NCBI GenBank assembly: GCA_964483115.1 | Contig: CAYZZF010000003.1 | Span: forward strand, 2,772 to 66,771 | DNA from: an uncultured Gammaproteobacteria bacterium | GTDB taxonomy: Bacteria > Patescibacteriota > Microgenomatia > Levybacterales > UBA12049 | DNA: 64,000 bases | Direction of reading: 5' to 3' | In this document: piece by piece, positions 9,731 to 63,901 of the stretch | How positions within the stretch are numbered: the stretch's first letter is position 1 | Layout of the letters: each line of letters begins with the position of its first letter | Position numbers and translations under genes: made by a program | Notes under the pieces: generated by a model | What the model was told of the DNA's origin: nothing | Seen by the model: the letters and a program-made list of their open reading frames with translations, nothing else | Database searches by the model: none

Positions 9731-10768
9731 ATGGAAGAAGAGTTAATCCAAATTAAGAATGCGGCAGTATCGTTAATTTTGGAAGCAAAAAATCAAGAAG
9801 AACTCGAAGAAATAAAGCTTCAGTTTCTGGGAAGAAGTGGAAAGCTGACACTTGCCATAAAAGAAATCCCTAAATTACCTATTGAGAAAAGGCCTGAAAT
9901 TGGAAAACTTGCAAATGAAGTTAAGAACACAATTGAGGAAACTTTAGAAAATCAAAAATCGAAAATCAAAAATCAAAAATTAGAAGCTGCAAAGATTGAG
10001 ATTGACAGGACAGAACCTGGGATAGAACCTGAAATAGGACACATTCATCCAATGTCCCAAGTCATTTATGAAGTTGTGGATATATTTAAAACTTTGGGAT
10101 TTCAAGCAGCAGACGGGCCCGAGATAGAAACTGATTACTACAATTTTGAAGTTTTAAATATCCCCAAGGATCACCCCGCACGAGATATCCAACAGACATT
10201 GTACTTAGACACAAGAAACAGTAAGGAAACGCCCGGAGAAATATTGCTTCGAACTCAGACGTCCAACATGCAAGCAAGAATCATGGAAAAAATTAAACCT
10301 CCATTTAGAGTTATAGTCCCAGGGAAGGTATTTAGATACGAGCAGGTAGATGTTTCTCACGGATTTGAGTTTCAACAATTTGAAGGATTCGCAGTTGATG
10401 AAAATATCAGATTAACAGATTTATTTGGAACTATCGAATATTTCTTTAAGAAATTCTTTGGTGAAAAAACTAAAGTCCGCTTTGTATGCCATAACTTTCC
10501 TTTTGTAGAGCCCGGGGCTGAAGCCTATATTAACTGTAATGCTTGTGGGGGAAAAGGCTGCGTCTTCTGTAAAAATTCCAGTTGGGTAGAGATATTAGGA
10601 GCAGGAATGATACATCCTAATGTTTTAAAAAGTGTTAATATTGATCCAAATAAATATCAAGGCTTTGCCTTTGGAGTTGGTTTGTCAAGACTTGCAACTT
10701 TAAAATATCAAATGGATGATTTACGGCTTCTGACAAACCCCGACTTAAGAATATTAAATCAGTTTTAA
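9731..10768 (+). CDS. pheS: Phenylalanyl-tRNA synthetase alpha subunit
   Basis: ILLRTQTSNMQAR, FRYEQVDVSHGFEFQQFEGFAVD, and class II motif 3. Confidence 0.85.
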   Translation: MEEELIQIKNAAVSLILEAKNQEELEEIKLQFLGRSGKLTLAIKEIPKLPIEKRPEIGKLANEVKNTIEETLENQKSKIKNQKLEAAKIEIDRTEPGIEPEIGHIHPMSQVIYEVVDIFKTLGFQAADGPEIETDYYNFEVLNIPKDHPARDIQQTLYLDTRNSKETPGEILLRTQTSNMQARIMEKIKPPFRVIVPGKVFRYEQVDVSHGFEFQQFEGFAVDENIRLTDLFGTIEYFFKKFFGEKTKVRFVCHNFPFVEPGAEAYINCNACGGKGCVFCKNSSWVEILGAGMIHPNVLKSVNIDPNKYQGFAFGVGLSRLATLKYQMDDLRLLTNPDLRILNQF

Positions 10769-16567: not shown

Positions 16568-18640
16568 ATGAATCTTAAAACTCCTATCCGTTTGGCAGGA
16601 AATATATTCACAAGATATGCAAACCGTCTTGAAAAACTTGGTATTAAAACCATAGATGATTTTCTCTATTATTTTCCATTTCGTTATGAAGATTATTCCG
16701 TCATTTCGAAAATCAGTCAGGTGCAAAGCGGGGAAGTGGTAACGATCCAGGGAGTCGTAGTTGATATTAAAAATGAATACACCAAAAAATGGAAAAAAAT
16801 TCAGAAAGCAAAGATTGCAGATGAAACAGGAGTAATCGACGTTATATGGTTTAATCAGCCATTTATTTTAAATATAATAAGAAAGAATGATAATGTATCT
16901 CTGTCTGGAAAAATAGGTTTGCATTTAAGTAAATTTGTTCTTGAATCTCCTGATTATGAAGTTATAAATGAACAGACACAAACAATCCATACTGGAAGAT
17001 TAATCCCAATCTATAGAGAAACCAACGGTATTTCGTCTAAATGGTTACGTCGCCAAATATATAAAATCATTAGGGAAAATAAACAAAATATACTCGAATA
17101 TCTTCCTGACTCAATTAAAAAAGATAATGATTTAATGATGTTAAGTGACGCAATTGAACAAATTCACTTTCCAAAATCATTAGAAGATGCTAAAAAAGCA
17201 AGATATCGACTAGCTTTCGATGAATTATTTATTCTCCAACTAACAGCGGCGAAAAGAAGATTTGAATGGAAGAAAAGCCTTACAACCCACCCCTTTTCTA
17301 TAGCAAGCTACAAAAAAAATATTGAGGATTTTTGGAAAAAGCTTCCCTTTGAACTAACAAATGCTCAAGAAAAGGCAGTTTCTGAAATTTTTAAAGATTT
17401 AGGCACAGAGAATCCAATGAACAGACTTTTGGAAGGAGACGTAGGAAGTGGAAAAACAGTCGTTGCAAGCATTGCTATGTATCTAGCTTTCTTAAATGGT
17501 TTCCAATCGGTTCTTATGGCACCAACTGAGATTCTTGCTCAGCAACATTTTAATACTATTTCGAATCTTTTATCTCCATTTAAAGTCAAAGTCAGCCTAA
17601 AAACAGGAAGTATTAAACATAAAGTATCAAGTATAAAGACCGAAAGTAAAAAAATACTCAATACTCAATACTCAATACTCAATACTAACATTTTAGTTGG
17701 GACTCATGCTGTACTTTCTGAAAAGATCAATTTTGAACGTTTGGGACTTGTTGTAATTGATGAACAACAGCGTTTTGGCGTAGAGCAACGGGCAATAATA
17801 AGAGAGAAAGGGGGAAATCCGCACTTTCTTACAATGACTGCAACTCCAATTCCCAGAACCGTTGCTTTAATTTTGTATGGAGACCTTGATCTTTCTTTTT
17901 TGGATGAAATGCCAAAAGGCAGAAAAAAAATTAAAACATGGCTTGTCCCTTCGGAAAAAAGAGATAGTGCCTATCGATGGCTCAAGTCTCAAATTTCAAC
18001 TTTCAAATCTCAGGCTTTTATCATTTGTCCTTTTATTGAAGAATCAGAAAGCATAACTACTGTTAAAGCCGCAACAAAAGAATACGAAAGACTAAAAAAG
18101 GAAATTTTTCCAAATCTCAAACTTGCTCTTCTTCATGGAAAGCTGAAGACCAAAGAGAAAGATTTAATATTGGAAGGTTTCAAAAATAGAAAAACTGACA
18201 TACTTGTCTCAACGCCTGTGGTTGAGGTAGGAATAGATATTCCTAACGCAACAATTATGATGATCGAGGCAGCAGAGCGTTTTGGACTTGCCCAGCTCCA
18301 TCAACTGCGAGGAAGGGTTGGTAGAAGAGAAAAACAATCATATTGTCTATTATTTACAGAGTCACAGCGTGAGAAAACAATTGAAAGGCTTAAAGCGATG
18401 GAAACAATGAGTATAGGCGTAGAACTTGCAGAACTTGATTTAAAACTTCGAGGACCAGGAGAAATATATGGCACAGCCCAACACGGGATTCCAATGCTTA
18501 AAATCGCATCATTTTCAGATATTGCTCTTATAGAAAAGACAAAAAGAGAAGCAAAAAAAATATTTTCAAACATTAAAAGCTATCCAAAACTTTTGGAAAA
18601 AATAGAAAAATCCACAACAAAACAAGTCTCCCCAGATTGA
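16568..18640 (+). CDS. recG: ATP-dependent DNA helicase RecG
   Basis: Wedge/OB domain. Helicase motifs GDVGSGKT and DEQQRFGV. C-terminal ...LHGKLKTKEKD...QLHQLRGRVGR. Confidence 0.85.
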   Translation: MNLKTPIRLAGNIFTRYANRLEKLGIKTIDDFLYYFPFRYEDYSVISKISQVQSGEVVTIQGVVVDIKNEYTKKWKKIQKAKIADETGVIDVIWFNQPFILNIIRKNDNVSLSGKIGLHLSKFVLESPDYEVINEQTQTIHTGRLIPIYRETNGISSKWLRRQIYKIIRENKQNILEYLPDSIKKDNDLMMLSDAIEQIHFPKSLEDAKKARYRLAFDELFILQLTAAKRRFEWKKSLTTHPFSIASYKKNIEDFWKKLPFELTNAQEKAVSEIFKDLGTENPMNRLLEGDVGSGKTVVASIAMYLAFLNGFQSVLMAPTEILAQQHFNTISNLLSPFKVKVSLKTGSIKHKVSSIKTESKKILNTQYSILNTNILVGTHAVLSEKINFERLGLVVIDEQQRFGVEQRAIIREKGGNPHFLTMTATPIPRTVALILYGDLDLSFLDEMPKGRKKIKTWLVPSEKRDSAYRWLKSQISTFKSQAFIICPFIEESESITTVKAATKEYERLKKEIFPNLKLALLHGKLKTKEKDLILEGFKNRKTDILVSTPVVEVGIDIPNATIMMIEAAERFGLAQLHQLRGRVGRREKQSYCLLFTESQREKTIERLKAMETMSIGVELAELDLKLRGPGEIYGTAQHGIPMLKIASFSDIALIEKTKREAKKIFSNIKSYPKLLEKIEKSTTKQVSPD

Positions 18641-24572: not shown

Positions 24573-26078
24573 TTAAAAATTTCTCATAGTCACTGACGTT
24601 TGAAATGGGATAGATGCTTTTTTCTCGAAAAAATTACTTGAGGTCTTACTAGAAAGAGTAAAATTTATCCCAATTATTGGAGGGGAAACAATATTATCTT
24701 GAGAACAAGTAAAAAAACAGGAATCAACAGAAACAGAATTATTAGTATCTACGAGATTGGCTCCGTTTGATGCAATTTGGCCATTGGGAGAACGCTGAGA
24801 AGAATCTAAGCAGGAAAAGATTGTAGTTCCTCTGTCAAAAGAAGTTATTTTTACATAATTGTATTGAATTAGAGGCGGGGTTGGAGTAGGGGATGGAGCT
24901 GGAGTAGGAGATGGGGTTGGACCAGGCGTAAAAGTAGCGGTTGGTGTGGGTGTGGGGGCCGCAGGGTTTATTGAAACTCCTCCAATTGCCCAATAGCGAG
25001 AGAATGAAAATGTCCATGACATTGTTACAGAATCTGCTCCAGGTTTTGTACTAGAGGCTCCTAATTCAACGCTACTGGCTACCGTGTTCCATAATTGAGT
25101 TTGACCAGAACCAACAGTAGGAGAACTAGAACTGTAAGCTGCAAGATTATCCTCAACTACTGCTCCTGTTTTACTTACAACATTAACAGAGGGATTTTTA
25201 CTATAACCAGAGGCAGTTGTATAGTTACTAAGAGGGGCTGTTTGATCAACTCCTGACCAGCTTGTAGCTCCTCCCACAGGATAGACGTAAGTTGAAAAGT
25301 TTACTTTAATTGTAGCGGTGCCGCTTGTGGGATTAATAAGATACCACATTTCTGATTGGTCTTGATTGATATCCTTTATCCCACCTATTCTTGTAAGAGA
25401 TGCTGTTCCATAAGTTATACTAGTTATGGAAGTGGAACTTCCATAAAAGGAGACACTAACCAAGAGAAGCCTATTGCTGTTCGAACCTACTGTATGGTTC
25501 CAGCTAAGAGATTTTGCATATGAACCAGCCGTATAAGATTTTGCATCAAGAGTTGGAGAAGCAGCTGCAACAGCTTCTTTTATTGGCGATTTTTCAAACT
25601 TAGGAATTAAGTCTTCTAACTTTGAAAATAAACTTGACGTTTTTTCTTTGCCTAGGCTGACAAATCCCTGAATAAACTCAGCAATTTTCGAAAAAAAACT
25701 TTCTTTTTTGCGAATGATAATAGGTGAATAAGAAAGAGGATAACTGCAATCTGCAGTGTAGTTAACTCCGTCAGTGCTTACTCCGTCAAAGTTTTGGGCA
25801 TATTGTATCATCTTTCCCATTTGTGAAATCGCACTATTACCATTTCTTCTAACAATATCTATAGTATTTGTTTTACTTGTTCCACGAAGAGAGGAAACTA
25901 AAATAGCTGAGACAACCGCACCTACAGTAAGGATGACAAACATCACAACCAAAAGCTCGATTAAGGTGAATCCTGCTCGCCGCCGGCTCGAGTTTAAAGT
26001 TAAAAGTTTAAAGTTAAAAGTTAATAAAGAAGGGGGACTAAAATTTTTAATTTTGGATTTTAATTTTGAGTTTTGCAT
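24573..26078 (-). CDS. Large type IV pilin-like protein (501 aa) with a Pro/Thr-rich tract
   Basis: Prepilin cleavage/methylation motif RRRAG|FTLIELLVVM. PAAPTPTPTATFTPGPTPSPTPAPSPTPTPP linker. The leader peptide is encoded by AT-rich heptamer repeats. Confidence 0.6.
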   Translation of the reverse strand: MQNSKLKSKIKNFSPPSLLTFNFKLLTLNSSRRRAGFTLIELLVVMFVILTVGAVVSAILVSSLRGTSKTNTIDIVRRNGNSAISQMGKMIQYAQNFDGVSTDGVNYTADCSYPLSYSPIIIRKKESFFSKIAEFIQGFVSLGKEKTSSLFSKLEDLIPKFEKSPIKEAVAAASPTLDAKSYTAGSYAKSLSWNHTVGSNSNRLLLVSVSFYGSSTSITSITYGTASLTRIGGIKDINQDQSEMWYLINPTSGTATIKVNFSTYVYPVGGATSWSGVDQTAPLSNYTTASGYSKNPSVNVVSKTGAVVEDNLAAYSSSSPTVGSGQTQLWNTVASSVELGASSTKPGADSVTMSWTFSFSRYWAIGGVSINPAAPTPTPTATFTPGPTPSPTPAPSPTPTPPLIQYNYVKITSFDRGTTIFSCLDSSQRSPNGQIASNGANLVDTNNSVSVDSCFFTCSQDNIVSPPIIGINFTLSSKTSSNFFEKKASIPFQTSVTMRNF

Positions 26079-26093
26079 TTTAAATTTTGAATT

Positions 26094-26573
26094 TTATGGC
26101 GCTGTCACACTTGAATTATTGTTAACACAAGAAACAATTTTTATCTGGTGACAAAATGGATTTGAAACGCTTGTGCATTTGGTGTCTGACCAAGACACCA
26201 ATGCTGTTATTAATGCCCCAGTACTTGAACAGTCCATAGATTTTTGTGAAATATCAATTTCTCTTACGAAAAGATTATCAATATTTGTACCGCAGCTAAT
26301 TCCTTTCTGAGTAAGGTCTCTATTTTTATCAAGACAATAATAAGTATTATCGTAGGTTGAAAAATCTGCCCAATTAGATTGAGCAAGTTTTCTAATTATC
26401 TCTATTCCTTCCTGAGCGTATTGTGTAGCCACGTTTTGATTCTTGCTAAATTGGACATTGGTGAGAGATGACATGACAATAATTACTATTGCAGCAATTA
26501 TAACTGTGGCTGTCCCCAATGCTATCAAAACCTCAATCAATGTCTGTCCAATTTGTGAGCTGTTCTTTTTCAT
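26094..26573 (-). CDS. Type IV pilin/pseudopilin
   Basis: G|QTLIEVLIALGTATVIIAAI is a class III signal peptide. Confidence 0.6.
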   Translation of the reverse strand: MKKNSSQIGQTLIEVLIALGTATVIIAAIVIIVMSSLTNVQFSKNQNVATQYAQEGIEIIRKLAQSNWADFSTYDNTYYCLDKNRDLTQKGISCGTNIDNLFVREIDISQKSMDCSSTGALITALVSWSDTKCTSVSNPFCHQIKIVSCVNNNSSVTAP

Positions 26574-27064: not shown

Positions 27065-27527
27065 AATAATAGTTACTATTGCATCCTGTTCCGCTTCCGT
27101 CCGGAGACGTAGTTGTGCCTTGAGAATCATTGGTGTTTTCAAGACACGCGCCTAGAATATAAGTTATGCCATCATTGCTTGAGTAATAGTACATACCGCT
27201 ATTATAATAAGAACTTCCGTTGGGATCACAAGGAATTTTTTGCATATAAGTGGTGGGTGGACTTCCGGCAGTCATAGCAGATCCACAGGCAGGTAGCGAT
27301 GATGGATAGCTTCCCTCATCCGCTCTGTAAAATTCCAGTGCTGACTGTATCTGACGAAGGTCAGACTTTCTTTGACTATCTCTTGCTCTCTGCCGAACGC
27401 CAATAAAATTTACAAAAAGAATACTCGCCAAAACTCCGATAATTGCAATAACAACCAAAAGCTCAATTAGAGTGAATCCTCCGTTGAGATTTGAGATTTG
27501 AGATTTGAGATTTGAGATTTTCTTCAT
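27045..27527 (-). CDS. Type IV pilin
   Basis: GG|FTLIELLVVIAIIGVLA, then RARDSQRKSDLRQIQSALEFY. The leader carries (TGAGATT)x4 heptamer repeats. Confidence 0.7.
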   Translation of the reverse strand: MKKISNLKSQISNLNGGFTLIELLVVIAIIGVLASILFVNFIGVRQRARDSQRKSDLRQIQSALEFYRADEGSYPSSLPACGSAMTAGSPPTTYMQKIPCDPNGSSYYNSGMYYYSSNDGITYILGACLENTNDSQGTTTSPDGSGTGCNSNYYYVLTNP

Positions 27528-34871: not shown

Positions 34872-35555
34872 ATGCAGTCAATTCTAATCACATCAAAAAA
34901 CAAAAAAAACTCACATAAACACGCGGCATGGATAGCAAGTAATAACAAAATCGATAATTTAGATATTGATATTGTGAGTTTTGAAAAAATAATAGGCATT
35001 GAGGATATAAGAGCTCTACAAAAGAGACTTTTTCTAAAACCAATAAAAGGTAATGTAAAAGCAGCTATTATAGAAGCGTATGAAGGACTAACGATTGAAG
35101 CTCAAAATGCGCTCTTAAAGGTACTGGAAGAGCCGCCTGAAAATACTATTATAATAGTAACAATTCCAAACAAAAACCTTCTCTTGCCAACAATCCTCTC
35201 AAGATGCAAAATAATTGAACTTAAAGAGGAGTTTAAAGAGCCCACAGAAAAAGAAATATCTCAATATCTTAATATTTTAATATCTTTACCAAAAAGTAGT
35301 ATGGGGGAGAAACTTAAACTTGCTCAAGATTTTGGAAAAAGCAGAGAGGACGCAATAATTTGGCTTGAGCAAATGTCAGTTGTTGTTCGTAAAAGTTTAA
35401 TTAATTCTATAAAAAATAATTCCTCAATAAGGCAGGAATTTTCAGCTTCAGGGTATTTAAATATTTTAAAACTCCTAGAAGAAACTTATACTGCTATTAA
35501 AACTACTAATGTAAACCAACGCTTTGCCCTAGAAAATCTTTTTCTATCACTTTAA
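34872..35555 (+). CDS. holB: DNA polymerase III delta'-like protein (HolB-like, no Walker A)
   Basis: EAQNALLKVLEEPP and LLPTILSRC sensor motifs of clamp-loader delta'. The N-terminal ATP-binding region is not evident. Confidence 0.5.
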   Translation: MQSILITSKNKKNSHKHAAWIASNNKIDNLDIDIVSFEKIIGIEDIRALQKRLFLKPIKGNVKAAIIEAYEGLTIEAQNALLKVLEEPPENTIIIVTIPNKNLLLPTILSRCKIIELKEEFKEPTEKEISQYLNILISLPKSSMGEKLKLAQDFGKSREDAIIWLEQMSVVVRKSLINSIKNNSSIRQEFSASGYLNILKLLEETYTAIKTTNVNQRFALENLFLSL

Positions 35556-35557
35556 TT

Positions 35558-36829
35558 ATGATAATTAAAATTAAAAAACTGTTTTATTTCCCATTGGCTT
35601 ATTATTTTAGATTCTTTGCAAAAATTAGACTAAACCGATGGAAACCAAGAGTTATTATAATTACCGGCTCGAGTGGAAAAACAACCCTTTTAAATCTTGT
35701 GGAATCTCAAATAGAGAGTAGAGCAAAATACAGCCACCATACCAATAGCAGCTATGGAATTCCATTTAATATTTTGGGACTTGAAAGGAGAACTCTATCT
35801 TTAAGCGAATGGCCCTTTCTGTTTCTGTTTGCTCCTATAAAAATATTTACTCCGGTGCCGAAGAAAAAATTTTACATTGTTGAGGCTGATTGCGATAGGC
35901 CGAATGAAGGCAGGTTTCTAACAGCTCTGCTTAAACCCGAAGTCACCCTTTGGACCAATTCGACAAGAAGTCATAGCATGAATTTTGACCCGCAGGTAAA
36001 AAATGGAAAATTTAAGAGTGTCGAAAAAGCTATAGGATATGAATATGGTTATTTTATAGAAAATACATCTAAATTAGTGGTAACAAACGGCGACTCTGTA
36101 ATTATCAAAGGAGAACTTTCAAGAACTAAAGCAAAAGTAGTGTCTATCACAATAAAAAATCTTCAAAATTATAAGATATCACATGAAGGCACCGAATTCA
36201 AAAGCCAAGGAAAGATTTTTAGATTTAGACAACTTTTGCCAAAAGAAAATTTCTACACCTTAGAAATGTGTTTAAATCTTTTATCTTATCTGAGAATCCC
36301 GTCAGATGAATCATTCAGTAAATTTATTCTTCCCCCAGGAAGAAGTAGTTTGCTAAGTGGCATTAAAAATACCAAAATTATCGATAGCAGTTATAATGCC
36401 AATCTCGACTCTATGGCTGCAATTTTGGACATGTTTGATAAAATTCCAGCTGAAAAAAAATGGGCGATACTCGGAGACATGCTTGAGCAAGGACAAGAAG
36501 AAAAAGAAGAACATGAAAAACTGGCAAAGATAATATCCAGAATGCTATTTGACAGAATTATACTTATAGGTCCGCGGGTTTCCCGATACACTTATCCGGA
36601 ATTAAAAAAAATACTCAATAGAAAAGTCAAGATAGAAAAATTCGAAAAACCAAAAGAAGTACTTAATTATCTAAGATCAAATATCAAAGGCGGAGAGTTC
36701 TTACTCTTCAAAGGCGCACGATTTCTTGAGGGAGTAATAGAAAATTTACTTGTCGATAAAAAAGATGTCTTAAAACTGGCGAGGCGCGAAGAAGCCTGGG
36801 AGAAAAGAAGAAAGTCTTGGGGATTATGA
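35558..36829 (+). CDS. murF: Mur ligase family protein, MurF-like (UDP-MurNAc-tripeptide--D-Ala-D-Ala ligase)
   Basis: ATP-binding P-loop VIIITGSSGKTT. IDSSYNANLDSM matches the MurF DDSYNANP motif. Confidence 0.55.
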   Translation: MIIKIKKLFYFPLAYYFRFFAKIRLNRWKPRVIIITGSSGKTTLLNLVESQIESRAKYSHHTNSSYGIPFNILGLERRTLSLSEWPFLFLFAPIKIFTPVPKKKFYIVEADCDRPNEGRFLTALLKPEVTLWTNSTRSHSMNFDPQVKNGKFKSVEKAIGYEYGYFIENTSKLVVTNGDSVIIKGELSRTKAKVVSITIKNLQNYKISHEGTEFKSQGKIFRFRQLLPKENFYTLEMCLNLLSYLRIPSDESFSKFILPPGRSSLLSGIKNTKIIDSSYNANLDSMAAILDMFDKIPAEKKWAILGDMLEQGQEEKEEHEKLAKIISRMLFDRIILIGPRVSRYTYPELKKILNRKVKIEKFEKPKEVLNYLRSNIKGGEFLLFKGARFLEGVIENLLVDKKDVLKLARREEAWEKRRKSWGL

Positions 36830-37569
36830 ACAAAACGGCAAATGGCAAACGGCAAATGACAAATGACAAACTGAAAGTTTTTATTCTACACGGTTGGGCT
36901 TACTCAAAAGAAAAATGGAACCCTTTCCTATCTCTTTTAAAGTCGGGGGGCTTAAACCCCTATTTGCTTTCAATTCCAGGACTTACAGAAAAAAACGATA
37001 AAGTTTGGAATATAGATAATTATGTCAAGTGGCTTTATAAAATTTTAGAAAAAGAGAAAGGGAAGATTGTTCTTTTAGGACACTCAAATGGAGGGAGAAT
37101 AGCTCTTGCCTTTACGATAAAATATCCCCAAAAACTATCAAAACTAATTCTAATTGATAGCGCCGGAGTTTATCACAATGATTTACCTATAAAAATAAAA
37201 CGCGGCATATTTAAAATAACGGCTAAAGTTGGCAAGAAAATCTTTCCTCTTGAGCAGGCAAGAAATTTATTGTATGCAATAGCACGAGAAAATGACTACA
37301 AAAATGCTGACCCAATCATGAAAAGGACTATGATTAATCTTATTAACTCTGATAAGAGTCTTACTATTGATAAAATAAAAGTCTCTACTATTATAATATG
37401 GGGAGAAATAGATAAAATAATTCCTGTGTCTGATGCAAAAATATTAAACCAAAAAATAGTCAATAGTAAATTATATATAATTAATAACTCCAGACATTCA
37501 CCTCAATTTACTCATTCAGAAGAGGTGGCAGACATAATAATTCAGCAATTAAATCGTGCAGTAATTTAG
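36817..37569 (+). CDS. Alpha/beta-fold hydrolase
   Basis: Nucleophile elbow GHSNGG. The N-terminus (MNKTANGKRQMTNDK) is encoded by GGCAAAT/GACAAAT heptamer repeats. Confidence 0.55.
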   Translation: MGIMNKTANGKRQMTNDKLKVFILHGWAYSKEKWNPFLSLLKSGGLNPYLLSIPGLTEKNDKVWNIDNYVKWLYKILEKEKGKIVLLGHSNGGRIALAFTIKYPQKLSKLILIDSAGVYHNDLPIKIKRGIFKITAKVGKKIFPLEQARNLLYAIARENDYKNADPIMKRTMINLINSDKSLTIDKIKVSTIIIWGEIDKIIPVSDAKILNQKIVNSKLYIINNSRHSPQFTHSEEVADIIIQQLNRAVI

Positions 37570-42892: not shown

Positions 42893-43408
42893 ATGACTAT
42901 TAAAAATCTAAAAGTTGGTAAAAATCCGCCGGAGGAAATAAATGTTTTTATAGAAATACCGCAGGGTGTTTCGGTTAAATATGAACTTGATAAAAATTCA
43001 GGCGTTATTTTTGTGGACAGATTTCTTTATACCGAAATGGAATATCCTTTTAATTACGGGTTTATTCCAAATACTTTGTATGACGATGGAGATCCGGTTG
43101 ATGTTCTTGTGCTTGCGAGCAAACCCGTCGCGCCCGGCGTGGTTATTCCATCCCATCCAATAGGAATGCTTGAGATGGAAGATGAAGCAGGAACTGATAA
43201 CAAAATAATCGCAGTGCCGCTTGCAAAGGTTGATCCGAAATTTAAAGATTATAACGATATCTCAGATATCCCAGAAAAAACAAAAAATGAAATTAAATAT
43301 TTTTTTGAGAATTACAAAAAAACCGAGCCGGGTAAGTGGGTAAGACTTAAAGACTGGAAAGGGAAAAAAGAAGCATTAGAAGAGATCAGACGGTCAATTA
43401 AACCCTGA
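42893..43408 (+). CDS. ppa: Inorganic pyrophosphatase (family I)
   Basis: [10 protein letters not shown] and the EIPQG...YELDK signature. Confidence 0.85.
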
Positions 43409-43534
43409 CTCCAAAATTACAAATTCCAAATAAATTACATTTTCTAAATTCTAATTTCTAAAATTTTGAGTTTTGGTTATTTGAATTTAGATATTATTTG
43501 AAATTTGGTGCTTTGAATTTGGAATTTTTTATTT
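43409..43534. repeat. AT-rich imperfect palindromic element of the heptamer-repeat family (copy 1)
   Basis: Left arm AAATTCCAAATAAATTACATTTTCTAAATTCTAA. Right arm TTTGAAATTTGGTGCTTTGAATTTGGAATTT, with near-copies at 57331-57362 (reverse complement) and 63343-63378. Confidence 0.55.
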
Positions 43535-56762: not shown

Positions 56763-57548
56763 TTAATATTTCAACCTTAAAAGAAAATCACTAAGGTCTT
56801 TTGGGAGAGAAGATTTGATCTGTAAAGTTTTATTATTAACTGGATGGACAAAAGAGATTTCTGAGGCGTGGAGGAAAAGACGGGACAAAAGTTTTCTGTC
56901 CTTCCTTGCGACTTTTCGACCCGCATAAAGATTATCTGCAAAAACAGGATGGCCAAAATATTTAAGATGTACTCTTATCTGATGAGTTCTTCCCGTCTGC
57001 GGATATAGTTCGATCAAACTCAAAGCCTCTTTTTCCTCTCCTGATACATAATATTTAATATTTAATATTTTATACATTGTCGTCGCTTCTCTACCACCTG
57101 CAACAATCCCAAATCTCTTTCTATTCCAAGGTGTTCTTCCAACCGGCACATCTATTTCTCCTTTAGAAGGCGTAACTTTTCCATGAACCAAAGCGATATA
57201 AGTCTTTTTAACCTTCCTCTCTTTGAATTGTTTTTGAAGATTCAAAAAACAATCGAGGGTTTTGCCAATAAGAAGAACTCCCGAAGTCTCCTTATCAAGT
57301 CTATGAACAATCCCAGCCCTGCTGGTAAATTCTAAATCTAAAGCACCAAATTCCAATTTTTTTTTATCATTTGAATTTTGTAATTTATTTGTGATTTGTG
57401 ATTTGTGATTTGTGATTTCAAGATACTCTTCTACCCAGTCCTGTACTGTTTCCTCCTCTTTCGTGGTTTCCGAACGATTTACCGTAACCCCAGACGGTTT
57501 ATCTATAACCAAAAGGCATTCGTCCTCATATATTATTTTCATATCCAT
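56763..57548 (-). CDS. RluA-family pseudouridine synthase (RluD-like, no S4 domain) with an in-frame repeat-derived insertion
   Basis: Catalytic GIVHRLDKETSGVLL and HQIRVHL. A 30-aa insertion (EITNHKSQITNKLQNSNDKKKLEFGALDLEF) is encoded by the heptamer-repeat element at 57331-57418. Confidence 0.7.
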   Translation of the reverse strand: MDMKIIYEDECLLVIDKPSGVTVNRSETTKEEETVQDWVEEYLEITNHKSQITNKLQNSNDKKKLEFGALDLEFTSRAGIVHRLDKETSGVLLIGKTLDCFLNLQKQFKERKVKKTYIALVHGKVTPSKGEIDVPVGRTPWNRKRFGIVAGGREATTMYKILNIKYYVSGEEKEALSLIELYPQTGRTHQIRVHLKYFGHPVFADNLYAGRKVARKDRKLLSRLFLHASEISFVHPVNNKTLQIKSSLPKDLSDFLLRLKY

Positions 57549-58252
57549 AACTTGGGGCGGGACTTAATAATCCTAATAAGTTTTTCATGCTTTACAAGAA
57601 GAACAAGCGGAATTAAAAACATACCTAAAAATATAAGATTTTCAGGGTCTTTTAAAAATAAAAATCCTTTAAACTTATCTATGATACTAAAAATAATTGA
57701 TATCAAGGAAAGGGAGATCAGAAATAGAAGTCCAACTGTGCCATCCTTAAGTTTTCCTTTCTGAATAAGACCAAAAAGAAATTTAAAAAAAATGAAGAAT
57801 AATATAATATAAATAAAAATTAAGGCAATCGGAGAAGGCCTTAAAAGCTTTTCGCCAGATAACCAAAAGTAACCCAGTGTCCCTATTGGCAATGCGGCCA
57901 AAAATGAAATAGAGAAAAAGTCAAATATTCTACCCACTGGAATATTTTTAGTCTTTGAATAAATCAGCATAAATACGCTCGCGCCAAGTACTCCACCTCC
58001 AAGAGACAATCCTGGAAAATAAGGAAAAAGTATAAATACAAAAGGATTTTTGAGGATAGAAAGGTTGTAAAAAATTACATAGAAAAACCGTGCAAAGAAA
58101 ATACCAACTATGAAATCTATAAAACTTAGGTTGAATATTTTTTCTATCATTATATCTTTTTGCAAAAATACAAGGTCATCACGGGACAAAAAGTAAATAC
58201 AAAAAAGAAATATAAATAAACCCACCAAAAGAATGAGAATAAAAAAGTTCAT
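57539..58252 (-). CDS. lgt: Prolipoprotein diacylglyceryl transferase-like membrane protein
   Basis: ARFFYVIFYN...GLSLGGGVLGASVFML and PVGRIFDFF...LPIGTLGYFW align with Lgt blocks (GRLGYVLFYN...GGMSFHGGLLG; GRLGNF). Confidence 0.45.
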   Translation of the reverse strand: MNFFILILLVGLFIFLFCIYFLSRDDLVFLQKDIMIEKIFNLSFIDFIVGIFFARFFYVIFYNLSILKNPFVFILFPYFPGLSLGGGVLGASVFMLIYSKTKNIPVGRIFDFFSISFLAALPIGTLGYFWLSGEKLLRPSPIALIFIYIILFFIFFKFLFGLIQKGKLKDGTVGLLFLISLSLISIIFSIIDKFKGFLFLKDPENLIFLGMFLIPLVLLVKHEKLIRIIKSRPKLWI

Positions 58253-59583: not shown

Positions 59584-60100
59584 GACTTATGCTGTCTCCT
59601 ACTTTTATAAAAAGTGGCACTTTGGTTTTTATACCATTTTCTAAAACTGCGTCTTTGAAGACATTTGTTGCGCTGTTACCTTTTATAGATGCACCTGTTT
59701 CTATTACTTTAAATTTCATCTTAGGTGGCAGATCCAAAGACAAAGCTTCGTCCCCAAAAAAACTTATATTAAAATTTTCGCCCTCCTTTAGATATTCGTA
59801 ATATTGAAACTTAATAAGAGAAATAGAGATCTGCTCAAACGTCAAAGGGTTCATAAAATAAGCGTTCTGTCTATCTTTATAGAGAAACTGGAGTTCTTTT
59901 TTTTCAAGTCTTATATCATTAACTCTTGCCCCACTTATAAAACTTTTGTTTGTTAATGCACCATTTCGCAAATTTCTAACTTTGACTTTAATATTAGCAC
60001 TTCCCCGCCCCATCTTTATATGCTCATAGGAAAGGACCTGGAAAATTTGTCCCTCAGCTTCAAATGTTGCACCAGCTCTAAGTTCTGTTACAGAAACCAT
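59546..60100 (-). CDS. efp: Elongation factor P
   Basis: N-terminal KOW-like domain with the conserved Gly-rich loop KMGRGSANIKVKVRNL, plus OB domains. Confidence 0.8.
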   Translation of the reverse strand: MVSVTELRAGATFEAEGQIFQVLSYEHIKMGRGSANIKVKVRNLRNGALTNKSFISGARVNDIRLEKKELQFLYKDRQNAYFMNPLTFEQISISLIKFQYYEYLKEGENFNISFFGDEALSLDLPPKMKFKVIETGASIKGNSATNVFKDAVLENGIKTKVPLFIKVGDSISLDTRTGEYSEKV

Positions 60101-60213
60101 AATTTAAAAATTAAAACTCAAAGCTCAAAATGAAAAACTACAACGCCAATCGTAAATCTTTTAAAAATTTGTGAAGTTTTGAGATTCAAAGATGTAAATT
60201 TGACATTTGAGAT
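60101..60213. repeat. AT-rich heptamer-repeat palindromic element (copy 2)
   Basis: AAAACTCAAAGCTCAAAATGAAAAACT ... TTTTGAGATTCAAAGATGTAAATTTGACATTTGAGATTTAAGTTTTCAGATTC. Arms are related by reverse complement. Confidence 0.45.
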
Positions 60214-61794: not shown

Positions 61795-61935
61795 TAAAAA
61801 ATTCCAAATTAAAAATTTTAAATCCTAAATAAATTACATTTCTCAAAATATTAAAATATAAACCGTTTTGGATTTAGGTTTTGTGATTTTGATATTGTTT
61901 AGAATTTATAAATTAGTGCTTAGAATTTTATCTTG
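61795..61935. repeat. AT-rich heptamer-repeat palindromic element (copy 3)
   Basis: AAAAATTCCAAATTAAAAATTTTAAATCCTAAATAAATTACATTTCTCAAAAT ... GTTTTGGATTTAGGTTTTGTGATTTTGATATT. Confidence 0.5.
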
Positions 61936-63255: not shown

Positions 63256-63382
63256 AACTTATAAAAATTCCAAATTCCAAATAAATTTAAATGTTCAAAA
63301 TTCTAAATTCGAAATTGCTCCTGTATTTTGGTAATTCGAATTTTGATATTATTTTGGAATTTGATGCTTTGGATTTTGAATT
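63256..63382. repeat. AT-rich heptamer-repeat palindromic element (copy 4)
   Basis: AAATTCCAAATTCCAAATAAATTTAAATGTTCAAAATTCTAAATTCGAAATT ... TTTGGAATTTGATGCTTTGGATTTTGAATTTT. Confidence 0.55.
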
Positions 63383-63901
63383 TTAACCCAGCACGACAAC
63401 TTCCATTTCTTCTGGTAATTTTTCTGAGACAGAGAATTTTTGAAGAGACGTGATTTCTTTTCCAAATTCTTTTGCCAACACCGATGCCATTTCCCCATAC
63501 AAAATAACTACACTAGACTCAAATGAACTAATAATAGATTGATCAATCTCTAAGTCTGAATTTAAAATAAGTATCTTATAAGCTTTTCCATTCTGGGTTT
63601 TGCCTAGTGCGCTTAAATTTCCTAGAAGAACTCCTATGCTGCCAATATCCAGACTATATATAAGTTTATCTGCCAAGGCCTGAGTCGTAATTCTAATGCC
63701 CCCTATTTCGTATTCCCCAGGCCCCTCTATTAAAACCCGAAAGCCTTCGACTTTTGATGCATCAATATCTCCATTGCTTTTAAGAGACAAAATTCCGTCT
63801 GCATTTGTTTTTTTCATTTGCCCTGTTGGGTCAACCACAAGACTTGCGTTTTTAGCCTTAATTTTAATTGAATTTTTTAAAAGAAGCGTTACGTCCATCA
63901 A
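63383..63901 (-). CDS. Hypothetical protein (not L9, despite sitting in the usual rplI position upstream of dnaB)
   Basis: 172-aa ORF with no L9 signature and no recognisable motifs. Confidence 0.3.
   Translation of the reverse strand: MMDVTLLLKNSIKIKAKNASLVVDPTGQMKKTNADGILSLKSNGDIDASKVEGFRVLIEGPGEYEIGGIRITTQALADKLIYSLDIGSIGVLLGNLSALGKTQNGKAYKILILNSDLEIDQSIISSFESSVVILYGEMASVLAKEFGKEITSLQKFSVSEKLPEEMEVVVLG

Follow-up and report, generated by a model that had tools for sequence, protein, structure and literature searches.

In a Levybacteria genome, the gene for an RluA-family pseudouridine synthase carries within its reading frame a copy, roughly 90 nt long, of a palindromic repeat whose relatives fill spacers between genes. 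Comparison with orthologous genes shows that this copy is old, that it has stayed at one and the same site, and that it has been conserved as nucleotides rather than as protein. The explanation we favor, and hold to be moderately probable, is that of a vertically inherited in-frame palindrome in a permissive linker of the enzyme, which was kept up at the DNA level and has decayed to a fossil in the genome studied here. Throughout, the window means the whole 64-kb stretch of DNA that was analyzed. The host gene and the parts of interest within it are as follows.

56763 to 57548, minus strand: the rluA host gene, an ORF of 261 aa encoding the catalytic module only, without an S4 domain.
57391 to 57418, minus strand: left arm of the element, a perfect (AAATCAC)x4 heptamer array, translated ITNHKSQITN.
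57357 to 57390, minus strand: loop region, made of the family core AAATAAATTACA plus AAATTCAAATGA and then an A-run, translated KLQNSNDKKK.
57327 to 57356, minus strand: right arm TTGGAATTTGGTGCTTTAGATTTAGAATTT, translated LEFGALDLEF.
57049 to 57074, minus strand: a second, independent heptamer array in rluA, (AAATATT)x3.7, encoding KILNIKYYV, another variable loop.

The 261-aa protein is an RluA-family pseudouridine synthase. It contains the PseudoU_synth_2 catalytic domain (PF00849 in Pfam, E=1e-30), with the catalytic Asp motif HRLD(K/R)xTSG read as GIVHRLDKETSG, and it scores 216 bits against TIGR00005 (rluA_subfam, NCBIfam; cut-off 192.7), matching profile positions 72-295 of 298 with no S4 domain. 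The best Foldseek matches of its predicted structure are RluD catalytic modules, at a TM of 0.73-0.74. A closer assignment is not obtained from the NCBIfam equivalogs for RluD, RluC, RluA and TruC, since the protein falls far under each cut-off; for RluD, the 23S rRNA pseudouridine 1911/1915/1917 synthase, NF008385 gives 131 bits against a cut-off of 351. The nearest protein matches are annotated as Candidatus Levybacteria, and it is these names that place the genome in the group. The start codon of rluA overlaps the stop codon of an upstream lgt-like gene, and the gene order efp-MFS-lgt-rluA-LytR_C is kept in the eight contigs compared.

Read on the minus strand from 57418, the element is (AAATCAC)x4-AAATAAATTACAAAATTCAAATGAT-A(8)-TTGGAATTTGGTGCTTTAGATTTAGAATTT, in agreement with the string quoted in the first-pass annotation. 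The coordinates given there, 57331-57418, have the correct start but end 4 nt short, as the string runs to 57327 and its terminal 30-mer occupies 57327-57356. TRF places the perfect 7-mer array at 57387-57418. The element encodes ...EITNHKSQITNKLQNSNDKKKLEFGALDLEF... followed by TSRAGIVHRLDKETSG, and both its frame and its position between the N-terminal region and the catalytic motif are as the annotation had them. It adds about 25-27 residues between the helix "QDWVEEYLEI" and the catalytic "RAGIVHRLD". Alignments to the solved RluD/RluC/RluA chains in the PDB split exactly at the element, where residues 25-71 of the query (47 aa) stand against about 20 aa, so the excess is absent from the solved homologues. 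In an AlphaFold model built on a 30-sequence alignment (mean pLDDT 80), the catalytic core is confident, while residues 44-61 are of low confidence, with pLDDT <50 at 50-59. The right-arm peptide, residues 62-76, is modelled as a moderately confident helix (pLDDT 62-86) that leads into the catalytic strand. The predicted structure is thus consistent with the surface loop that had been anticipated, in that the insert appears as a peripheral, mostly disordered excursion. At the second array, 57049 to 57074, the PDB alignments also show extra residues, and one relative (L163) has (AAATTCG)x4 at the equivalent place.

Relatives of the element are found in the spacers of the window, each of which is filled by its copy.

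43405 to 43532, plus strand: intergenic member e43, filling the ppa/gyrA spacer; a long AT-rich hairpin, then TTTTTTATTT and the gyrA start; MFE -26.3, z=-3.6.
63262 to 63388, minus strand: intergenic member e63, in the spacer upstream of dnaB, where the genes are on the minus strand; hairpin, TTTTTAT, dnaB start; z=-2.1.
61797 to 61935, minus strand: intergenic member e61, on the downstream side of dnaB, ahead of the following gene; hairpin, TTTTTT, RBS; z=-3.2.
60096 to 60212, minus strand: possible degenerate member e60, in the spacer before efp; weak nhmmer match, E=0.14; z=+0.33.

The members of this family match themselves on the opposite strand, that is, they are palindromes, built from a left arm that is a run of NNNAAAT heptamers and a right arm that is a complementary run of ATTTNNN. 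The membership of the rluA segment, which had been proposed from the sequence at first reading, is confirmed by shared cores and by significant profile matches. In the alignment, both cores of the rluA element are common to e43, e61 and e63, namely the loop core AAATAAATTACA and the right arm TTGGAATTTGGTGCTTT.GATTT.GAATTT. A profile that was built from these three intergenic copies alone, with all rluA copies left out, finds the rluA copy of the window at E=6e-5 and the rluA inserts of relatives at 3e-10 (L081), 2e-9 (L102), 1e-7 (L161), 8e-7 (L084), 6e-5 (L164), 1.5e-4 (L163) and 5e-4 (L090), with no spurious match among about 0.5 Mb of AT-rich DNA. At <=3 mismatches, the window has two occurrences of the 30-mer core where 0 are expected; the second copy of this right arm, with 3 mismatches, lies at 63354-63383.

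These shared features bear on a purely local origin, in which slippage would have enlarged a seed AAAATC...GATTTT (codons K-I ... D-F) within rluA, and the likeness to the intergenic hairpins would be convergent, the product of the same mutational process throughout an AT-rich genome. The outermost stem pairs are indeed ancestral codons, the AAAAT(C) of 'KI' being complementary to the GA(T/A)TTT of 'DF/EF'; other lineages show only short arrays of unrelated units at the site, and the window has many other in-frame arrays besides, including a heptamer periodicity in pheS that involves no indel. However, the cores AAATAAATTACA and GGTGCTTT, which the rluA copy shares with the intergenic copies, are specific and non-periodic, and the profile matches are specific as well as significant. 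We therefore consider a local origin with convergence improbable.

The intergenic copies have the anatomy of terminator-like hairpins, and this may be their role. By reading, the hairpin of each of the four is followed directly, on the transcribed strand, by 5-6 consecutive T, ahead of the RBS or start codon of the following gene, whereas the rluA copy has only TTT after its hairpin. Three of the four (e43, e61 and e63, not e60) fold significantly better than their shuffles. A scan for canonical, consensus terminators calls none of the elements, because their stems are long and AT-rich and have large loops. The intergenic copies occupy conserved positions between genomes: orthologous copies of e63 were found in L161 and L162, and the L161 spacer orthologous to that of e60 holds a well-folded element (z=-4.0). 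Two copies in relatives reach fold z values of -4.0 and -4.1.

The rluA insert has a wide but bounded distribution. Of the 120 Levybacteria orthologues closest in sequence (57-74% identity), the majority have a related segment at exactly this site, with peptides such as IPNPKSQIPNKSQIQNSNTQTNLELGALDLEF and IRNPKSEIRNKSQIQNSNDQNGFEFRDSNFEF. The distance from KPxG to HRLD ranges from 47 to 96 aa among the 120 best orthologues and is 65 in the window protein, whereas relatives from other CPR lineages have 40-42 aa between these anchors and no insert. In some of the latter, the site holds short arrays of unrelated heptamers: (AATTTCA)3, (AAGTTCA)4, (AAATATC)4 or (AATTTCC)3. The full inserts are 111 or 117 nt long in 13 of 13 cases and align almost without gaps, at a mean column identity of 78%, with the loop core AAATTCAAATGA in the same orientation in all of them. 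Between the rluA copy of the window and the intergenic paralogues of its own genome, identity is no more than 53-59%. Since the rluA copies are more alike between genomes than they are to paralogues in the same genome, and since they share both site and synteny, the insert is orthologous and old. Though derived, the trait is of long standing in a Levybacteria clade, and the insert is neither recent nor private. The ancestral origin that had been named as the refuting alternative is thus half right, as related Levybacteria orthologues do have the segment at the same site while relatives outside the clade are without it.

Within the clade, the insert is far from uniform. The left-arm columns hold other units in orthologues (CCC, CTC, CCG, TCG, GCAC), and a smaller share of the orthologues has a remodelled or shortened version. 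In these variants the right arm may be replaced, for example by NNNYEEQSKLDF, or small GC-rich insertions may be nested in the element, and there are forms of 65 aa and short forms of 18 aa; the short and scrambled variants are common among close relatives. In a rough NJ tree, which is too crude for event counts, degenerate variants are interspersed among full forms, and this points to repeated remodelling. Targeting by a diversity-generating retroelement was considered as a source of variation and dropped, the variable positions not being adenine-specific.

Age and position also decide against the way in which the element had been understood at first, as a mobile MITE/REP-like element inserted recently or recurrently, either with preservation of frame or at a specific site. 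The palindromic architecture and the dispersed family would fit such an element, as would the interspersion of long and short forms in the rough tree. The hallmarks of MITEs are missing: no target-site duplications flank the 10 copies inspected, though the arms are inverted repeats; no transposase was seen beside the copies; and near-identical copies are not seen in the window, where the copies are 53-80% identical to one another. A recent arrival is also at odds with the orthology of the rluA copies and with the conserved positions of the intergenic ones. Moreover, the profile matches no ORF but rluA in the 64-kb window, in 45 related loci, or in L161-L164. A recent insertion is in our judgment very unlikely, and already largely refuted. 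The related suggestion that these elements are selected to be translatable, or insert so as to preserve the frame, is not supported either. In the intergenic copies, almost every frame is interrupted by 1-6 stop codons, and none but the frame in use is open in the rluA copies; purifying selection on rluA alone is sufficient to explain the open frame.

The most telling feature of the insert comes from a codon alignment of 12 complete orthologous rluA genes. Identity at codon positions 1, 2 and 3 is 0.75, 0.72 and 0.67 in the insert, against 0.71, 0.82 and 0.44 in the rest of the gene, while amino-acid identity is 0.52 in the insert and 0.66 elsewhere. In a sliding-window comparison, third-position identity rises above amino-acid identity in the insert and nowhere else. 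Identical codons are also in excess, 0.756 observed against 0.528 expected per amino acid, and the excess is present in every amino acid; this per-amino-acid control rules out an artefact of the K/N/Q/E/F composition. Codon choice in the insert follows the repeat: Arg is CGA in 15 of 18 cases, against 20 of 196 elsewhere, and Gln is CAA in 22 of 23, against 40 of 80. From the flat codon-position profile and the surviving excess of codon identity, it follows that the insert is conserved as a nucleotide pattern of which the peptide is a by-product.

Such a profile is the opposite of what would be expected from selection on a peptide, and it weighs against a lineage-specific functional role in which the added helix or linker helps an S4-less enzyme to bind its rRNA or tRNA substrate. 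It is true that the enzyme is without the S4 RNA-binding domain, that the length of the full inserts is tightly kept, and that the right-arm peptide is predicted to be helical where it abuts the catalytic strand. Yet the residues are less conserved than those of the enzyme around them while their synonymous sites are more so, and close relatives do with 18-aa or scrambled versions. A functional peptide seems to us quite improbable.

The palindrome itself has left a clear mark on the orthologous inserts. In a single ungapped register, i+j=113, 75% of the cells are paired, against 57% and 48% when the register is slid by one column; this paired fraction is reached by none of 500 shuffles, and the covariation score by 2 of them. 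The arms co-vary through C-G to G-C double changes, which in each of the four heptamers fall at one and the same phase and affect one more pair besides. These double changes amount to a small number of independent events, in essence the split between a CC/GG-type and a CG-type clade. The window, L161 and L162 have GTGC at columns 86-89, which pairs exactly with the GCAC found at columns 24-27 in L084, L090 and L102; an ancestral GCAC/GTGC pair, of which each clade has kept one side, can be seen in them. The nhmmer strand of the best match had raised the possibility of opposite orientations of the element in two clades, which is ruled out by the loop core AAATTCAAATGA pointing the same way everywhere. 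Fold z values are -2.2 to -3.4 in 7 of 13 rluA inserts (L161, L165, L081, L166, L164, L163 and L084) and -1.0 to -1.5 in 5 of 13. The insert of the window has no excess structure (z=+0.51). The perfect (AAATCAC)x4 left arm is present in the window and in its closest relative, L162. In the genome of the window the right arm TTGGAATTTGGTGCTTTAGATTTAGAATTT has drifted and is only weakly complementary to the left. The stable hairpin, a feature of the family, has been lost in this copy.

The main rival to our explanation takes the hairpin, as RNA or DNA, for a functional cis-acting element within the ORF: a pause, attenuator or processing site in the efp-MFS-lgt-rluA operon, or else a protein-binding site, of the same functional class as the terminator-like hairpins between genes. 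Much of the evidence above would agree with it, since constraint on synonymous sites is confined to the insert, the arms have stayed complementary through coordinated changes, and the fold is significant in about half of the lineages. The rluA copy is also kept more widely than the intergenic copies: within the 12-20 kb available per locus, the profile gives no intergenic match in L164, and L164, L167 and L168 have no heptamer array resembling the element outside rluA. It lies some 130 nt from the rluA start codon, which overlaps the stop codon of the preceding gene. On the other hand, the structure has been lost in the copy of the window and in several others (z +0.5 to -1.5), many orthologues have nested insertions or a replaced right arm, which would not be expected of a required structure, and most genomes have no T-run after the rluA hairpin. 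A signature of the RNA strand is also absent: among mismatches, G-U and A-C are balanced (36 against 45), so nothing is specific to pairing in the sense transcript. Rfam 15 has no match at E<=1 in 57200-57560, and in the whole window it gives only three tRNAs. With this record, a cis-acting element is a possibility that we take seriously but find doubtful. A sigma-70 promoter in the right arm (TTGGAA-N16-TAGAAT) was rejected as a candidate: promoter-like matches number 35 against 30.8 in shuffles, the putative promoter is not conserved in CG-type orthologues, and its equivalents in e61 and e63 are on the non-transcribed strand.

The explanation we prefer, an old palindrome carried as a passenger, would run as follows. 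A palindromic repeat specific to Levybacteria, with two tandem-heptamer arms around an A/T-rich loop, would have given rise to the rluA copy, by insertion or by growth in situ, in the ancestor of a large Levybacteria clade. The site would be a naturally variable linker of RluA/RluD-type synthases, between the helix 'QDWVEKYLKI' and the catalytic strand 'RAGIVHRLD', where the encoded peptide could be tolerated as a passenger that has little order, varies more than the rest of the enzyme and has been remodelled again and again. Replication slippage may homogenize the units within an arm, and quasi-palindrome template switching may carry a change in either arm over to its partner; weak selection for the hairpin may contribute as well. 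Selection on rluA would only enforce the open frame. In the genome of the window, the left arm would have been homogenized to (AAATCAC)x4 and the hairpin lost, leaving what is essentially a fossil.

The upkeep puts this explanation under strain. Synonymous sites elsewhere in rluA have nearly reached saturation, but third positions in the insert are still 67% identical, which counts against upkeep by slippage or template switching. Nor do these processes obviously keep the AAAT/ATTT phase and the loop core, across lineages, for which a real cis-acting function or gene conversion from constrained paralogues may be needed. A further-reaching proposal, which we regard as speculative and rather doubtful, is that Levybacteria keep heptamer hairpins as functional cis-elements and that the one in rluA has been in dual use since the origin of the clade, both as a dispensable loop of the protein and as a conserved signal in DNA or RNA (a pause, an attenuator, a processing site or a protein-binding site), with a mechanism of the lineage that writes and maintains 7-nt periodicity in coding and non-coding DNA alike.

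Several known systems resemble parts of this picture. The STRR heptanucleotide tandem repeats of cyanobacteria have been described mainly as intergenic arrays. They share with the present element the 7-nt unit, the tandem arrangement, a lineage-specific abundance, and units that vary between genomes at a kept position; unlike it, they are not paired complementary arms that form a palindrome inside a gene. Quasipalindrome template-switch mutagenesis (the Ripley/Lovett model) is known from E. coli and phage T4 as a source of mutations. It is alike in that non-selective copying from arm to arm mimics compensatory evolution, but it is a mechanism rather than a family of elements, and one that we can only infer to have acted on the rluA insert.

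The closest parallel is found in the Rickettsia palindromic elements (RPEs), reportedly described by Ogata and co-workers in 2000. These elements sit at fold-tolerant places, are common to the orthologues of related species, and decay with time, as the rluA copy seems to do. The rluA element resembles them in being a palindromic repeat in frame at what the structural model suggests is a fold-compatible, peripheral position. RPEs are likewise palindromic repeats, of about 100-150 bp, that occur both between genes and in frame within unrelated housekeeping ORFs (PMC10969869). The differences are that in some RPE families about half of the copies are within ORFs, with a conserved peptide as product, whereas here rluA alone carries the full element in the sequence examined; that the Levybacteria peptide is less conserved than its DNA, and the arms are tandem heptamers; and that the host is a CPR bacterium instead of an intracellular alphaproteobacterium. 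MITE/REP-type elements such as SPRITE, Correia and ERIC (PMC10969869) are also dispersed, small, non-autonomous-looking palindromes that lie between genes and form stable folds; among them are some with a likeness to Rho-independent terminators, and cases of in-frame fusion with ORFs have been described. Apart from lacking the terminal-repeat and target-duplication signature, near-identical copies and a partner transposase, the Levybacteria copies differ from them in being positionally conserved between genomes, and current mobility is not indicated. The rluA element thus works like an RPE-type passenger but belongs to neither the RPE nor the MITE families. Tolerance of such an element in a housekeeping enzyme, which was at first thought unusual, has precedent in the RPEs: according to a 2024 review, in-frame fusions of MITEs with ORFs are not unusual, and RPEs form them at high frequency (PMC10969869). 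A literature search found no paper on heptanucleotide repeats in the Candidate Phyla Radiation, and one on repeats and hairpins of Patescibacteria gave only an unrelated system.

The "selfish palindrome inside a housekeeping gene", known from Rickettsia and from some MITEs, has a counterpart in the Candidate Phyla Radiation, with the twist that its arms are tandem heptamers and that the coding copy is more conserved at synonymous sites than the enzyme around it. This makes it a clean test case for separating constraint at the nucleotide level from constraint at the protein level in ultra-small genomes, and the nucleotide-level conservation of the insert is the part worth following up. It also carries a warning to annotators and structure predictors, namely that loops of this kind in CPR proteins may be repeat-derived passengers and not functional domains.

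It is worth noting that heptamer periodicity is a habit of this lineage and goes beyond the palindromic family. In-frame heptamer arrays are present in the window in pheS, in recG, in two pilin-like leaders, at the N-terminus of another ORF, and at the second site in rluA. The orthologues of PheS have different heptamer-coded peptides at one site while its length stays constant, from which it follows that coding DNA under weak constraint can acquire a 7-nt periodicity without insertion. A process acting throughout the lineage could possibly generate such periodicity inside genes, as in rluA, pheS, recG and the pilin leaders. The sequence at hand covers only about 20 kb per relative (12-20 kb per locus) and gives a poor census of the family copies per genome. 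Within these stretches, there are hints of a genome-wide homogenization of heptamer "flavor": L163 has CG-type units at three sites and L162 has CAC at two, while the window uses many units.

Tandem arrays lie inside several other genes of the window, and their positions, strands and host genes are as follows.
9946-9980, plus strand: (AAAATCA)x4.7, within pheS (9731-10768)
17653-17686, plus strand: (AATACTC)x4.9, perfect and in frame, in the recG-like helicase ORF 16568-18640
27484-27520 and 25991-26095, both minus strand: heptamer arrays in type IV pilin-like genes, within the leader peptides
35255-35286, plus strand: (AATATCTT)x4, an 8-nt tandem repeat, in frame in ORF 34872-35555
36833-36870, plus strand: (AAATGGC/AAATGAC)x5, at the N-terminus of ORF 36817-37569

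The pheS array is translated as ENQKSKIKNQK, and many PheS orthologues have different heptamer-coded peptides at its position, for example ESQKSKAKSQK and ESQELRIRNQESK. The segment carrying it is nevertheless constant in length (40 aa in 51 of the 52 orthologues in which both anchors were found), and thus the 7-nt periodicity at this site arises without indel. The pilin-like leader arrays directly precede the G|FTLIELL cleavage motif (MKKISNLKSQISNLNGGFTLIELL; ...LLTFNFKLLTLNSSRRRAGFTLI). Since the gain or loss of one unit there would shift the frame, both are candidates for phase variation. The 7-nt period is not universal among the in-gene arrays of this genome, as the 8-nt repeat indicates. 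The array in ORF 36817-37569 encodes MNKTANGKRQMTNDK; in other Levybacteria (P0071 and P0115) this unit also occurs at the rluA site, and is translated there as SQMANGKWQM. A looser AAGTATA-type array (17608-17638) lies upstream of the perfect one in the recG-like ORF.

The rluA gene itself carries two further features outside the insert.
57049-57074, minus strand: (AAATATT)x3.7, a second heptamer array in another variable loop, encoding KILNIKYYV
57313-57325, minus strand: small GC hairpin CCAGCAGGGCTGG, directly after the insert

In the related Levybacteria locus L163, the counterpart of the second array is (AAATTCG)x4 on the opposite strand (10493-10527). The GC hairpin recurs in orthologues as CCCGCAGGG and encodes the conserved SRAG/RRAG residues; this may be a coincidence. 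The start of rluA is overlapped by the stop of the lgt-like gene (57539-57548; ATGGATATGA), which suggests translational coupling inside an efp-MFS-lgt-rluA operon that Levybacteria share.

GC-rich mini-hairpins also appear to be nested within AT-rich elements, in the rluA insert as well as between genes.
L163 19855-20020: intergenic, in the ppa|gyrA spacer
Orthologues P0014, P0019, P0020, P0044, P0045, P0053 and P0065: within the rluA insert

In the insert they encode peptides such as SLPRRQAGQ, PPKADHPLAE and SPSADG, a hint of a second, GC-rich family of small repeats in Levybacteria. In three rluA orthologues of 294-305 aa (P0037, P0043 and P0074) the insert is 65 aa long (…SEVAHVAQDARSDFSKNQS…KTQTAFSSFANGQ…), and all that is left of its right arm is the terminal DLxLEF; the element there has been replaced or invaded by a larger sequence.
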